Of a DNA stretch of 64,000 nucleotides, positions 11,792 to 25,055 are shown piece after piece. Origin of the DNA: a virus (Duplodnaviria > Heunggongvirae > Uroviricota > Caudoviricetes); IMG/VR virus record IMGVR_UViG_2675903278_000002. One strand, given 5' to 3'. Within the stretch, counting starts at the first letter, position 1; the number at the start of each line of letters is the position of its first letter. Both the position numbers and the translations under genes were made by a program. The notes under the pieces are model-generated. The model saw nothing but the letters and a program-made list of their open reading frames with translations, did not search any database and was not told the origin of the DNA.

Positions 11792-12286
11792 ATGGCACGT
11801 CAAACCTATTTCACTTCTGCAACTAAACGTCCTCGTTCACTACGTCAAATTTTGGCCGAATTATTTAGCGGTCGTGTTCTGTCACGTCTTGATGAACTAG
11901 AGACTGCCGTTCGGTTGCTGAATGAACGTTTAGATAAGCAAGCGTCAGTTGTTGCGAACGTGGGGGCGATTGTTACCTCTGGTTCTTCACGCGAAGCGAA
12001 AAGTACACGGCCTTTAGTGAAGGAGAAAAACAACAAGGACAGTTCGAATGGAAAATTTTCAAAGAAAGAGGCTGAAACCAATGGCCTACGTTCTCATTAT
12101 AGTTTCACTGGCGACGATAGCCGTTCCAGCCGGCCAGAGCCTTTTGATGCCGGGTTCATCCATCACCACACCTCCGTCGACGACAATTACCACCACTCCA
12201 GTAGAGCGTCCTGTCACTCTGGATGGGATGACGGTGGATGCGATACCTCAAGTTCATCCAGTTACTCAGGATCATGCTGTGACTAA
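11792..12286 (+). CDS. Hypothetical protein (C-terminal half doubtful)
   Basis: 164-aa ORF. The last ~70 codons overlap the 12081 ORF in another frame and translate to low-complexity H/S/C/D sequence. Confidence 0.35.
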   Translation: MARQTYFTSATKRPRSLRQILAELFSGRVLSRLDELETAVRLLNERLDKQASVVANVGAIVTSGSSREAKSTRPLVKEKNNKDSSNGKFSKKEAETNGLRSHYSFTGDDSRSSRPEPFDAGFIHHHTSVDDNYHHSSRASCHSGWDDGGCDTSSSSSYSGSCCD

Positions 12287-12299
12287 GGCGGTTGTATGA
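12081..12299 (+). CDS. Small protein with N-terminal hydrophobic segment
   Basis: MAYVLIIVSLATIAVPAG... with AGAGG upstream. The stop overlaps the next start (ATGA), which supports this frame. Confidence 0.4.
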   Translation: MAYVLIIVSLATIAVPAGQSLLMPGSSITTPPSTTITTTPVERPVTLDGMTVDAIPQVHPVTQDHAVTKAVV

Positions 12300-12484
12300 A
12301 CTGGTTTTCAAATCACTTTGGAAAAATTTGGCTGGCAATTCTTGCCCTCATGGCCGCCGGTTGGGTATCGAACATTATAAAACTTGTTTGCTCTGGCGAT
12401 CTCCAGTTTCAGGCTGGTATGACCTTGGCTCGTGTTGTTGGGATTTTTGTTTTTCCAGTTGGTTCGGTACTTGGTTATTTCTGA
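12296..12484 (+). CDS. Small two-TM membrane protein
   Basis: 62 aa. Hydrophobic segments IWLAILALMAAGWV and VVGIFVFPVGSVLGYF. Confidence 0.5.
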   Translation: MNWFSNHFGKIWLAILALMAAGWVSNIIKLVCSGDLQFQAGMTLARVVGIFVFPVGSVLGYF

Positions 12485-12537
12485 CGGCTGTTAGTGCATA
12501 TGCATTGACCATCTCTGCGTAAGCAATTTATGTAATT

Positions 12538-12554
12538 AGAAAACAACTTGTTTT
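12538..12554. promoter_or_regulatory. Box A palindrome copy
   Basis: AGAAAACAACTTGTTTT, 23 nt upstream of the TerB-like ATG. Confidence 0.6.
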
Positions 12555-12577
12555 GACAAATAATAAAAGGAAAACAC

Positions 12578-13003
12578 ATGTTAGGTTTCTTCAAAAAGAA
12601 AACTCGTAAAGCTGTTATCGAAGTCAAAAAAATGGAGAACCGTGATGCGGTTGAGGCCACCGTGTGGGGCGCGTACATGATCTCCTATGCCGACGGCACA
12701 TGTGACGCAAAAGAAATTGCCATTCTTGAGAAGACAATTGCAGCTCTGCCTGCGTTTTCTCCGTTTGCTGGTGAAATTGCCCAAATGAGCGCCAATATCC
12801 GTGCTCGTTACGAAGCGTCCCCTCGTTCTGCTAATGCACAGGCTATTCGTGAGCTGTCTGATATTGCGGGTACTCCAGAGGCGGTCGATGTTCTGTGTCT
12901 GTGCCTTGATATTGCCGACCAAGACGGTATTGGCGAACAAGAAGAGCTGGCCCTGAAAAAGATCGCACAGGCGCTTCAGTTGTCACTGGATGCTTATCTC
13001 TAA
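12578..13003 (+). CDS. TerB-domain (tellurite-resistance TerB-like) protein
   Basis: DG..D..E...L pattern repeated (ADGTCDAKEIAILEK; DQDGIGEQEELALKKIAQAL), typical of TerB. Confidence 0.7.
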   Translation: MLGFFKKKTRKAVIEVKKMENRDAVEATVWGAYMISYADGTCDAKEIAILEKTIAALPAFSPFAGEIAQMSANIRARYEASPRSANAQAIRELSDIAGTPEAVDVLCLCLDIADQDGIGEQEELALKKIAQALQLSLDAYL

Positions 13004-13161
13004 TGCTTGAGAGATTCCGGCTTGTGACCGTCATTGCTCTTCTGGTGATGGCGGTGTTGGTGGATTTTACGGGAAAGATGATGTCTGTCATTTCTGATGG
13101 CGTCCTCATTGGTCTGGCGATCTACTTCGCTTATCCGCTAGTCCGTAAAGCAACGTGTTAA
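13003..13161 (+). CDS. 52-aa two-TM microprotein (not in ORF track)
   Basis: TAATG overlap with the TerB stop. I translated it by hand as MLERFRLVTVIALLVMAVLVDFTGKMMSVISDGVLIGLAIYFAYPLVRKATC. A terminator follows. Confidence 0.45.
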   Translation: MLERFRLVTVIALLVMAVLVDFTGKMMSVISDGVLIGLAIYFAYPLVRKATC

Positions 13162-13163
13162 TG

Positions 13164-13192
13164 ACAAGGGCCAAATGGCCCTTGTGTTTCGT
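13164..13192 (+). terminator. Rho-independent terminator
   Basis: ACAAGGGCC-aaat-GGCCCTTGT followed by gtttcgtt. Confidence 0.7.
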
Positions 13193-13267
13193 TGACCGAA
13201 ATAGAGAGTTTGCACCTTTACGTTTAGCTTGCTCCCCTTTTATGCCACATCACAATAAAGCCAATAA

Positions 13268-13282
13268 GAAAACAACTTGTTT
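13268..13282. promoter_or_regulatory. Box A palindrome copy
   Basis: GAAAACAACTTGTTT, 18 nt upstream of ATG 13301. Confidence 0.6.
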
Positions 13283-13300
13283 AAGCATTAGGAAAAACAC

Positions 13301-13870
13301 ATGTGCAAGAAATGCAAAGCGATAGCTGATGAACAAAACGCCTTATTCGAAGAAATGGATGCTAATGAACTGGTCAAAATGTTAGCCATTCTTCGAGGAA
13401 TAGAAGACGTTTCCATATTTGAGAGAGTGGTTACAGCACTTAATTTTGAGTCCACCTTTGAAGAGCCAACTCAGGTTGTAGCTTTAGCACATCATTTCGG
13501 TGTTCATTATCTTGCTGAAAAAGAGCGCGCTGATAAGTTGCAGGCGACTTTGGATATGGTGAGCGAGACTCAACGAACTGATGACACTAACAAGAGTGAG
13601 GCGATTATTGCCAGCAAAGATCGTGAAATTGCTGGGCTTAAATCCTCTCTAACGATGTTGATGTCTGCGTTCAATCTTATGTCTTCTCAGGCGGGTTATA
13701 AAATGCCATCACTAAACAGCGATGATCCGATGGCCGTTCGTCAGCTTTTGGGAGCAATGGCCGACCAACTCGACGACACAAAGAGTCGGCTTGAAGACAT
13801 GATGCGTGAGTTAAGCCATCGACATAACCTCGCAACACAGCCACACAAAGCCTTTCAAAGCTCTAATTGA
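13301..13870 (+). CDS. Hypothetical protein
   Basis: 189-aa ORF with the shared leader GGAAAAACACATG. Confidence 0.55.
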   Translation: MCKKCKAIADEQNALFEEMDANELVKMLAILRGIEDVSIFERVVTALNFESTFEEPTQVVALAHHFGVHYLAEKERADKLQATLDMVSETQRTDDTNKSEAIIASKDREIAGLKSSLTMLMSAFNLMSSQAGYKMPSLNSDDPMAVRQLLGAMADQLDDTKSRLEDMMRELSHRHNLATQPHKAFQSSN

Positions 13871-22560: not shown

Positions 22561-24594
22561 ATGACCCAAGTCGCGAAGAAAATTCTGGTGACGTGCGCGC
22601 TGCCGTACGCTAACGGCTCAATCCACCTCGGCCATATGCTGGAGCACATCCAGGCTGATGTCTGGGTTCGTTACCAGCGAATGCGCGGCCACGAGGTTAA
22701 TTTCATCTGTGCCGACGATGCCCACGGTACGCCGATCATGCTGAAAGCACAGCAGCTTGGTATCACACCGGAGCAGATGATTGGCGAAATGAGTCAGGAA
22801 CACCAGACTGATTTCGCAGGCTTTAACATCAGCTATGACAACTATCACTCGACGCACAGCGAAGAGAACCGTCAGTTGTCTGAGCTTATCTATACTCGCC
22901 TGAAAGAGAACGGTTTTATTAAAAACCGCACTATCTCTCAGTTGTACGACCCGGAAAAAGGCATGTTCCTGCCGGATCGTTTTGTAAAAGGCACCTGCCC
23001 GAAATGTAAAGCGCCAGATCAATACGGCGATAACTGTGAAGTCTGCGGCGCAACATATAGCCCGACTGAATTGATCGAGCCGAAATCGGTGGTTTCTGGC
23101 GCTACCCCGGTAATGCGTGATTCCGAACACTTCTTCTTTGATCTGCCTTCTTTCAGCGAAATGTTGCAGGCATGGACCCGCAGCGGCGCGTTGCAGGAGC
23201 AGGTGGCGAACAAAATGCAGGAATGGTTTGAATCCGGCCTGCAACAGTGGGATATCTCCCGAGATGCGCCTTACTTCGGTTTTGAAATTCCGAACGCGCC
23301 GGGCAAATATTTCTACGTCTGGCTGGACGCGCCGATTGGCTACATGGGTTCCTTCAAGAATCTGTGCGACAAGCGCGGCGATACCACCAGCTTCGATGAA
23401 TACTGGAAGAAAGACTCCACCGCCGAGCTGTACCACTTCATCGGTAAAGATATTGTTTACTTCCACAGCCTGTTCTGGCCTGCCATGCTGGAAGGCAGCA
23501 ACTTCCGCAAGCCGACCAACCTGTTTGTTCACGGCTATGTGACGGTGAACGGCGCGAAGATGTCCAAGTCTCGCGGCACCTTTATTAAAGCCAGCACCTG
23601 GCTGAATCATTTTGACGCCGACAGCCTGCGTTACTACTACACTGCGAAACTCTCTTCGCGCATTGATGATATCGATCTCAACCTGGAGGATTTCGTTCAG
23701 CGCGTGAATGCCGATATCGTGAACAAAGTGGTTAACCTGGCCTCCCGTAATGCAGGCTTTATCAACAAGCGTTTTGACGGCGTGCTGGCAAGCGAACTGG
23801 CTGACCCGCAACTGTACAAAACCTTTACTGATGCCGCTGAAGTGATTGGCGAAGCATGGGAAAGCCGCGAATTTGGTAAAGCTATCCGTGAAATCATGGC
23901 ATTGGCTGACCTGGCTAACCGCTATGTCGATGAACAGGCTCCGTGGGTGGTGGCGAAGCAGGAAGGACGCGATGCCGATCTGCAGGCGATTTGCTCTATG
24001 GGCATTAACCTGTTCCGCGTGCTGATGACGTACCTGAAGCCGGTACTGCCGAAACTGACTGAACGTGCAGAAGCATTCCTGAATACAGAACTGACCTGGG
24101 ATGGTATCCAGCAACCGCTGCTGGGCCATAAAGTAAATCCGTTCAAGGCACTGTATAACCGCATCGATATGAAGCAGGTTGAAGCACTGGTGGAAGCATC
24201 CAAAGAAGAAGTGAAAGCCACAGCCGCACCGGTAACTGGCCCACTGGCTGACGACCCGATTCAGGAAACTATCACCTTTGACGACTTCGCCAAAGTTGAC
24301 CTGCGCGTGGCGCTGATTGAAAACGCAGAGTTTGTAGAAGGTTCTGACAAACTGCTTCGCCTGACGCTGGATCTCGGTGGTGAAAAGCGTAATGTCTTCT
24401 CAGGCATCCGTTCCGCTTATCCAGATCCACAGGCACTGATTGGTCGTCACACCATTATGGTGGCTAACCTGGCACCACGTAAAATGCGCTTCGGTATCTC
24501 TGAAGGCATGGTGATGGCTGCTGGCCCCGGCGGGAAAGATATCTTCCTGTTAAGCCCGGATGCTGGTGCTAAACCTGGCCACCAGGTTAAGTAA
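22561..24594 (+). CDS. metG: Methionyl-tRNA synthetase (host-type, full length)
   Basis: 677 aa from ATG 22561 ([25 protein letters not shown]..., KMSKS). Only scattered substitutions relative to E. coli K-12 MetG as I recall it. The track ORF start at 22432 is upstream read-in. Confidence 0.97.
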
Positions 24595-24613
24595 TTAAAC
24601 AACCTCTCTTCGC

Positions 24614-24641
24614 AATGCCCGGCAACACGCCGGGCATTTTC
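24614..24641 (+). terminator. Rho-independent terminator of metG
   Basis: ATGCCCGGC-aacac-GCCGGGCAT followed by TTTT. Confidence 0.85.
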
Positions 24642-24677
24642 ATATAGACACAATCCCTTCTGATTTACACAGTACCT

Positions 24678-24692
24678 AAAACAATTTGTTTT
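24678..24692. promoter_or_regulatory. Box A palindrome copy
   Basis: AAAACAATTTGTTTT. The extended context AACAATTTGTTTTCTGCCTT is shared with the copy at 29301. Confidence 0.6.
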
Positions 24693-24727
24693 CTGCCTTT
24701 TGTTGATGGAGATAATAAACCACATAA

Positions 24728-24743
24728 GAAAACAACTTGTTTT
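24728..24743. promoter_or_regulatory. Box A palindrome copy
   Basis: GAAAACAACTTGTTTT, 12 nt upstream of ATG 24756. Confidence 0.6.
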
Positions 24744-24755
24744 GGAGTGGTTGAA

Positions 24756-25055
24756 ATGTTGAACATTACCCAAGCCTACCAGGTGGCATTGATCAGCTCA
24801 TCTCATACATCAGAGGAAGATGCTCGCCGATTCATGATCGCAAGCAATGAGCTGGATTGGGTTTCACAAATTGAGTACGGTTGCATTGTCCACGCCGGGT
24901 TACAGGACGATGACTGGAAAGATGAGTTGCGTCGATATGGTATATCCGAGGGCGCGATTGCGAACATTCAGAAAGTACTTGATGTAGGCTTTGACTCTGT
25001 ACATTTTGATTGTGGTGCACCGGTCGTTGAAGGGCTAGAGTGCTGGCAATGGTAA
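24756..25055 (+). CDS. Hypothetical protein
   Basis: ATG 24756 has GGAG 8 nt upstream. 99 aa. Confidence 0.5.
   Translation: MLNITQAYQVALISSSHTSEEDARRFMIASNELDWVSQIEYGCIVHAGLQDDDWKDELRRYGISEGAIANIQKVLDVGFDSVHFDCGAPVVEGLECWQW

Follow-up and report, generated by a model that had tools for sequence, protein, structure and literature searches.

The tciA–tciB pair of a Cyrano-type Escherichia coli phage: a TerB-family protein coupled to a DUF3927 membrane microprotein, with a possible role in lytic development

The TerB domain is a repeated element of tellurite-resistance operons and of no fewer than three anti-phage systems. Published reports describe TerB as membrane-attached or amphitropic and as an interaction partner of TerC (PMC11003894; 10.1101/2022.05.11.491447; 10.1101/2025.09.30.679545). 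The closest described relative of the locus treated here is the tciABC operon of phage P1, in which tciA, tciB, and tciC were all scored as non-essential by CRISPR interference (CRISPRi) (PMC10695390). The operon has been lost from about half of P1 subgroup 1 elements (PMC9603915), and its genes are expressed, with a change 10–20 min after P1vir infection (10.64898/2025.12.28.696737). From the CRISPRi result and this loss it follows that tciAB is dispensable for plaque formation. Here, a stretch of 64,000 nucleotides (the window) from a virus of the Caudoviricetes, IMG/VR record IMGVR_UViG_2675903278_000002, was analyzed. In this window a preliminary description, made from the sequence alone, had singled out positions 12538–13192 as a self-contained cassette that encodes a stand-alone TerB-like protein and an unannotated 52-amino acid membrane peptide.

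Based on sequence similarity, the locus is almost certainly the tciA–tciB accessory module first named in P1. Its carrier is, with equal confidence, an E. coli phage of ∼108 kb of the Cyrano/CMS-2020a type, a type mostly found as plasmids. Over a 1.3-kb region the identity was 99.3% to Escherichia phage CMS-2020a and 98.4% to phage Cyrano, where the two genes are annotated as 'P1 TciA-like protein' and 'P1 TciB-like protein.' TciA is 79% identical to P1 TciA over 141 amino acids, and TciB is 38% identical to P1 TciB. The 655-bp cassette was present in 209 of 5426 complete E. coli genomes, and 211 of its 213 places were on plasmids; the cassette-bearing plasmids listed were of ∼105–120 kb, with one of ∼198 kb. 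In those genomes the Prokaryotic Genome Annotation Pipeline (PGAP) labels the genes 'tellurite/colicin resistance protein' and 'DUF3927 family protein,' and the peptide also belongs to Pfam DUF3927 and to a 'TciB-like' PHROG family; it can therefore not be called unannotated. The pair is already known: it is named in the P1 GenBank record, represented in curated families, and common in enterobacterial phages. The arrangement itself is not new. As a discovery the locus carries little weight, being annotated in hundreds of genomes, and its remaining value lies in the functional question.

The likeness to P1 extends to the architecture of the genes. TciA has the same length in both phages, the stop/start overlap is a single base in each (TGATG in P1, TAATG here), and both phages are maintained as plasmids. 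P1 differs in encoding a third peptide, the small membrane protein TciC, for which tblastn with the P1 and D6 proteins returned nothing here. The P1 genes, according to the GenBank record, lie downstream of the C1-controlled ban promoters (Pban) and among tRNA genes, whereas the pair in the window is not part of a C1/ban operon, has no flanking tRNA genes (none was found anywhere in the window), and carries its own palindromic leader motif and terminator.

For TciA, family profiles, structure comparison, and an alignment of 15 phage homologues were used. The protein matched the Pfam TerB family (PF05099) with 28.8 bits over residues 33–136 (cut-off 24.4) and PHROG 632 ('tellurite resistance') at 2e-62. 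A profile of the 15 homologues aligned with the nuclear magnetic resonance structure of Klebsiella TerB (2JXU_A) at E = 3.3e-17, residues 13–137 against 19–144. AlphaFold2 (AF2), run on P0116, a fusion considered below, gave the TerB domain a predicted local distance difference test (pLDDT) value of ∼90. The top PDB match in Foldseek was 2H5N, an uncharacterized TerB-like protein (probability 1.0, E = 0.015, below the significance line), which was also weakly matched by the 15-homologue profile (E = 0.08). As judged by these matches, TciA is a stand-alone TerB-family protein, as had been proposed. Positions that are invariant or nearly so across the 15 homologues are almost all acidic (D23, D39-G40, E46, E66, E92, D95, D116-G117, and E122) and include two ADG-x5-E repeats (D39-G40…E46 and D116-G117…E122), motifs of the kind proposed for a divalent metal site. 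The N terminus, MLGFFKKKTRK, is hydrophobic and then polybasic, with a net charge of +5 over the first 20 residues; that of the whole protein is −5. The TerB of the terZABCDEF operon (Klebsiella, 2JXU) has the same domain and size, and both proteins share an MxxFF N terminus and the paired ADG-x5-E motifs. Membrane association and a partnership with the membrane protein TerC are reported for TerB, whereas the partner encoded in the window is a 52-amino acid hairpin unrelated to TerC. NCBIfam held no model for TciA or TciB, and PADLOC models gave no match to either at E ≤ 0.1.

TciB matched Pfam DUF3927 with 47.4 bits (cut-off 25) and PHROG 1470 ('TciB-like') at 8e-21. It has two hydrophobic helices with basic residues at both ends, and in the family alignment D21, D32-G33, and P45 are near-invariant. 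No related solved structure was found, and a word-indexed protein search recovered only near-identical sequences. When a set of 1.8 billion representative proteins was scanned in full by HMMER, with TciB as query, only 16 clusters came up, all of 25–87 amino acids and with no multi-domain fusions. The possibility that TciB is a diverged piece of TerC was rejected after hhalign of the TciB alignment against phage TerC showed no similarity. Also rejected was P0116 (196 amino acids, from a single Logan contig of 33.9 kb), the only fusion encountered, as a true P1-type TciA–TciB fusion: it carries both Pfam domains, but its junction, 'EQLYLMVIK,' resembles a 1-nt error, and it is thus given little weight as a natural protein, being probably the result of an assembly or sequencing error in the form of a single-base insertion.

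Both open reading frames (ORFs) lie where the preliminary description had placed them (Table 1), and the coupling of a two-helix peptide to the TerB gene that it had read from the sequence was borne out. The tciA stop codon TAA (13001–13003) and the tciB ATG (13003–13005) overlap by one base, in TAATG. The Shine–Dalgarno sequence of tciA is a good one, and the ribosome-binding sequence of tciB itself is weak (TGGA, 12 nt 5′ of the start), which, together with the overlap, fits translation of tciB by coupling. Relative to Klebsiella pJN2-26, the ratio of nonsynonymous to synonymous substitution rates (dN/dS) was ∼0.02 for tciA and ∼0.24 for tciB, with dS near saturation; as read from these sequences, both genes are under purifying selection, with TciB evolving some ten times faster than TciA. 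That the 52-codon ORF is a chance reading frame beside a real TerB gene is extremely improbable. It is short and has a weak Shine–Dalgarno sequence of its own, but its Pfam and PHROG matches, its dN/dS, the uniformly small size of all 16 TciB clusters, and the retention of its place and reading frame among phages with TciA identities of just 31–41% all argue against chance.

Table 1. Features of the tciAB locus, in window coordinates
Feature	Position	Strand	Remarks
15-bp palindrome AAAACAA-C-TTGTTTT (AAAACAACTTGTTTT), exact	12540..12554	+	24 nt 5′ of the tciA start codon
Shine–Dalgarno sequence AAGGA	12567..12571	+	6 nt 5′ of the tciA ATG; sequence reading; kept in Cyrano and pJN2-26
tciA ORF, 141 amino acids	12578..13003	+	Stand-alone TerB-family protein
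tciB ORF, 52 amino acids	13003..13161	+	DUF3927 membrane hairpin
Intrinsic terminator	13164..13195	+	9-bp GC-rich stem, 4-nt loop, T-rich tail; ends the tciAB unit
Next palindrome copy	13269..13283	+	Preceded by TTGCTC-N16-CACAAT-N13; kept in pJN2-26

The pairing is conserved well beyond P1. Among 15 diverse phage loci with a TciA-type TerB, a TciB-like ORF starts between −10 and +4 nt from the TerB stop in 12, namely those of P1, D6, the N4-like Salmonella phage FSL SP-058, Pantoea LIET2, Salmonella Arash, Actinobacillus pPE4, the Erwinia jumbo phage ChrisDB, Pseudomonas ZY21, the lambdoid phages JLK-2012 and Klebsiella 5 LV-2017, Klebsiella pJN2-26, and this window. A TciB partner lies directly 3′ of tciA in all 80 of the 80 best IMG/VR TciA loci. 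Bacterial-genome contigs were scanned with a degenerate DNA pattern, which gave 75 candidates, mostly chance matches, with only 7 true DUF3927 loci among them; TerB lies just 5′ of DUF3927 in six of the seven. The searches that the preliminary description had proposed, with a TerB profile and through the gene neighborhoods of homologues, thus returned both a TerB match and a small ORF conserved beside TerB homologues. Virulent phages also carry the pair, among them N4-like phages (Schitoviridae), Erwinia jumbo phages, and the myovirus Arash, in which its authors found no lysogeny genes (PMC10585845). In preparations of phage Arash its TerB homologue, Gp067, was abundant, at 432 spectra (PMC10585845). 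Its label as a 'structural protein' was not adopted; the 116-protein proteome also includes RNA polymerase and ribonucleotide reductase, so the detection shows expression of the TerB homologue and not virion membership.

Several further observations concern the surroundings of the pair in other phages. In ZY21 (L046:986-1171) and 5 LV-2017 (L053:2423-2575), the TerB stop is overlapped or directly met by a clear TciB-like ORF that starts with GTG and is absent from the GenBank annotation. The pair adjoins tRNA genes in five unrelated phages (P1, D6, JLK-2012, ChrisDB, and ZY21), and tRNA-Asn and tRNA-Thr recur beside it in P1, D6, and JLK-2012. The DUF3927 gene of phage 434 (L044:1441-1599), which has no TerB gene beside it, is flanked by two further genes for small membrane proteins and lies 3′ of the Q antiterminator.

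The preliminary description had credited the pair with a 'Box A' leader and a terminator of its own. The terminator is a strong hairpin: its stem-loop (13164–13185) begins 3 nt after the tciB stop, is followed by GTTTCGTT, and folds at −22 kcal/mol (z = −5.75; none of 200 shuffled sequences folded as well), and in Klebsiella pJN2-26 the stem is retained with one compensatory change, A-T to G-C. A leader motif is likewise present, in the form of the palindrome, but it is not a Nus boxA. The core GCTCTT is absent from 12401–12600, the leader folds no better than shuffled sequence (z = +0.6), and no Rfam family matched it, so that Nus/N-type boxA and riboswitch or attenuator readings were both rejected and the palindrome was read as an operator. 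Allowing up to two mismatches, the window contains 26 strand-matches to the palindrome, against 0.8 expected. The distinct AAAACAAnTTGTTTT sites number about 13–15 and are nearly all intergenic, 11–47 nt (in a few cases up to 72 nt) 5′ of plus-strand start codons. By our reading, several of them start 13–14 nt after a −10-like GATAAT or TATTAT hexamer. This placement at many promoters makes a protein operator more likely, and the palindrome is putatively the site at which a dimeric regulator, encoded by the phage, binds the DNA and governs many phage genes. Candidates for this regulator are the annotated 'Transcriptional regulator' CYRAN_114 and the LexA-like S24 protein CYRAN_98. No description of the motif was found. 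Sites start at 2318, 12540, 13269, 24678, 24729, 26342, 27537, 27914, 28398, 29301, 30051, 30536, 33454, 39653, and 39678; 24678/24729 and 39653/39678 are tandem pairs.

How far the cassette is self-contained differs between its two sides. At the 3′ side the terminator is followed by the palindrome copy at 13269, which marks the separate transcription unit of the downstream 189-amino acid gene (13301–13870) and bounds the cassette. At the 5′ side the hexamer AATAAT (12559–12564), which follows the palindrome, was considered as a −10 element and rejected, as transcription would start inside the Shine–Dalgarno sequence. No terminator was found between tciA and the upstream small membrane ORFs; since a convincing tciA promoter is also lacking, read-through from the upstream genes is possible, and the claim of isolation does not extend to this side. 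Homology at the DNA level between pJN2-26 and the window sets in at the palindrome and spans the coding region, the flank 5′ of the palindrome diverging completely. Together with the kept terminator stem, this indicates that palindrome, Shine–Dalgarno sequence, tciA, tciB, and terminator behave as a unit. The promoter and palindrome of the next gene are kept in pJN2-26 as well.

As a whole, the locus is best explained as a P1-type tciAB pair that forms a coupled, membrane-associated TerB module active in lytic development, an explanation that we offer tentatively and with slightly less than even confidence. TciB would be a small helical hairpin in the inner membrane, with carboxylates in or near helix 1 (D21) and at the turn (D32-G33). 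TciA would be a cytoplasmic or peripheral protein whose acidic ADG-x5-E motifs bind a divalent metal, held on the anionic inner leaflet by its hydrophobic and polybasic N terminus (LGFF-KKKxRK), by TciB, or by both. The one-base stop/start overlap would couple the amounts of the two proteins, which probably form one membrane-associated complex in which TciB fills the place that TerC, the integral membrane partner of TerB, has in classical ter operons. The conserved adjacency (12 of 15, 80 of 80, and 6 of 7 loci), the reported TerB–TerC partnership, and the TerB–TerC–TerB cluster of a Vibrio phage described below point to such a complex. The palindrome that tciAB has in common with many plus-strand genes for replication and nucleotide metabolism suggests that the pair is probably switched on with the lytic program and is not confined to lysogens. 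A lytic-phase role is further suggested by the presence of the pair in virulent phages, the detection of Arash Gp067, and, in P1, the location 3′ of the C1-controlled promoters and the change in expression. The job of the module would be to condition or guard the inner membrane of the infected cell, through homeostasis of ions, metals, or the proton-motive force or through exclusion of superinfecting phages or pore-forming colicins.

A number of observations weigh against this explanation. Under the positive-inside rule TciB would keep only ∼6 cytoplasmic residues at each end, which leaves little surface for TciA, and it lacks similarity to TerC. The AF2 model of P0116 gave the membrane part a pLDDT of ∼50 and no confident docking onto the TerB domain. 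The partners also occur apart: TerB is found without DUF3927 in Pseudomonas phages PMBT3 and AF, and DUF3927 without TerB in phages 434, 2B8, and Evi and in one E. albertii contig, so that in lambdoid phages the peptide can function, or at least persist, alone. No clear σ70 promoter was found for tciA, and the timing of expression in this element is deduced from the palindrome, a putative operator.

Other functions can be envisaged for the same two proteins. TciB with TciA might act in host takeover by blocking the divisome after induction, as other small division inhibitors of phages or prophages do, which we regard as unlikely. Small membrane proteins are a common form of divisome inhibitor, 'inhibition of cell division' is suggested on grounds of homology in the P1 annotation, and the C1-controlled region that holds the P1 tci genes also contains a dicF-like element. 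Links between ter operons and filamentation have been reported in Yersinia (PMC4633105). The wording of the P1 annotation is, however, transferred from whole ter clusters and not from TerB; neither protein resembles known division inhibitors in sequence. A further reading, distinctly unlikely in our estimate, is that the two proteins make up a minimal membrane device of the phage, sufficient in itself, in which TciB hairpins oligomerize around their carboxylates to bind or conduct cations, with a metal-binding TciA gating or sensing from the cytoplasmic face. If it were true, unrelated temperate and virulent phages would share a means of controlling the ion balance of the inner membrane, by which rival phages or colicins would be excluded or membrane-triggered abortive infection blunted, and the TerB domain would have its first defined biochemical role. 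A lysogenic-conversion gene is harder to accept, although the pair does occur in lambdoid prophages within the interval between Q and the lysis genes, a usual site of conversion genes, and TciA is a full-length TerB homologue. Such a gene would, as the name tci suggests, confer resistance to tellurite and/or pore-forming colicins in the manner of the ter operons of IncHI2 plasmids; resistance to tellurite, inhibition of phages, and resistance to colicins have all been linked to ter operons (PMC8123226; PMC9603915). Among the constructs listed as tellurite-resistant, the smallest comprises terBCDEF and not just terB (PMC11003894). The window has no second TerB and no TerC homologue (tblastn with a TerC protein gave nothing better than E = 1.7), and no ter genes occur in the 40 kb annotated in the near-identical Cyrano, TerD having been checked through that annotation only. 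These absences, and the presence of the pair in virulent phages, which make no lysogens, argue against a simple tellurite-resistance conversion gene, as does an operator that is the same as that of neighboring replication and nucleotide-metabolism genes; we consider the proposal improbable.

Equally improbable, in our view, is an anti-defense decoy, in which the phage TerB would mimic or titrate the TerB sensors of Shango, Bunzi, and Dionysus or blind membrane surveillance. TerB domains do occur in these three validated defense systems as proposed membrane surveyors (10.1101/2022.05.11.491447; 10.1101/2025.09.30.679545), and the pair is widely carried by phages, virulent as well as temperate, and in P1-like elements the region around it is highly variable (PMC9603915). 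Shango SngA, Bunzi BnzA, and Dionysus DinB resemble the tciAB products in combining a TerB domain with membrane components in a setting of phage–host conflict, but they are host-encoded, and the helicase, ATPase, or pore-forming partner genes of the defense systems are absent beside tciAB. TciA is, moreover, closer to the TerB of classical operons (2JXU), and the lack of a PADLOC match adds a weak argument in the same direction. Some placements would suit an accessory of lysis timing, either antiholin-like or a holin-modulating membrane pair: in Actinobacillus phage pPE4 the pair is directly 5′ of two holin genes and an endolysin gene (L043:1067-2772), and in Klebsiella 5 LV-2017 it lies between a late antiterminator and an endolysin gene and is followed by a holin-like ORF (L053:2001-3983), both phages being of temperate type. 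In JLK-2012 the pair comes after Q, as does the DUF3927 gene by itself in phage 434. In the window, P1, the N4-like phages, and the jumbo phages the pair is found instead among early, replication, or tRNA genes, far from the lysis cassette, and TciB, by its sequence, does not end in the charged tail that holins typically have at the C terminus; a role in lysis is accordingly very improbable.

A phage-borne counterpart with a full-size membrane partner is present in the N4-like Vibrio phage BUCT194, where TerB, TerC, and TerB stand in a row as a TerB–TerC module (L048:1-1623). There, as in the window, a phage TerB has an integral membrane protein as its neighbor and a stop that is overlapped by the following ORF. 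The membrane partner is, however, a full TerC/Alx-family protein, and the overlapping ORF encodes a soluble 83-amino acid protein and not a DUF3927 peptide. The tciAB pair is the smallest natural unit of a TerB and a membrane partner. Phages that differ as widely as P1, the N4-like podoviruses, and the jumbo phages have retained it, and it thereby offers a convenient system of two genes in which to study the action of TerB at the membrane.

The window is collinear with phage Cyrano, and tciAB lies inside a long plus-strand block of nucleotide-metabolism, replication, and hypothetical genes, including those for ribonucleotide reductase, ThyX, dihydrofolate reductase, RNase H, and methyltransferases. 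Its immediate neighbors are RNase H and small membrane ORFs on the 5′ side and the 189-amino acid hypothetical protein and a DUF4942 methylase on the 3′ side. Directly 5′ of the tciAB leader is a 62-amino acid ORF with two hydrophobic segments (phrog_6006, window 12296–12484). In a second element, too, tciA is preceded by a homologue of this ORF, recognizable in the N-terminal portion of the mis-called 226-amino acid P0026, so tciAB may form part of a more extended series of genes for small membrane proteins. Further upstream, at 11792–12299, two plus-strand ORFs overlap in different frames, each with a PHROG family match of its own: a 164-amino acid ORF (11792–12286; phrog_10411 at 7e-76) and an 83-amino acid ORF (12048–12299; phrog_15659 at 2e-48). 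The stop codon of the latter shares bases with the start codon of the gene that follows (ATGA at 12296), an overlap that favors its translation; the arrangement could reflect alternative gene calls, a frameshift, or a true overlap. At ∼22990–25020 the window and its neighboring sequence encode a methionyl-tRNA synthetase, a MinD/ParA-like protein, and a LexA-like S24 peptidase, placed by collinearity with CYRAN_98-100 of Cyrano. The annotation of Cyrano also indicates that the element has a full nucleotide-metabolism set, comprising both ribonucleotide reductase subunits (alpha and beta), ThyX, dihydrofolate reductase, and MazG.

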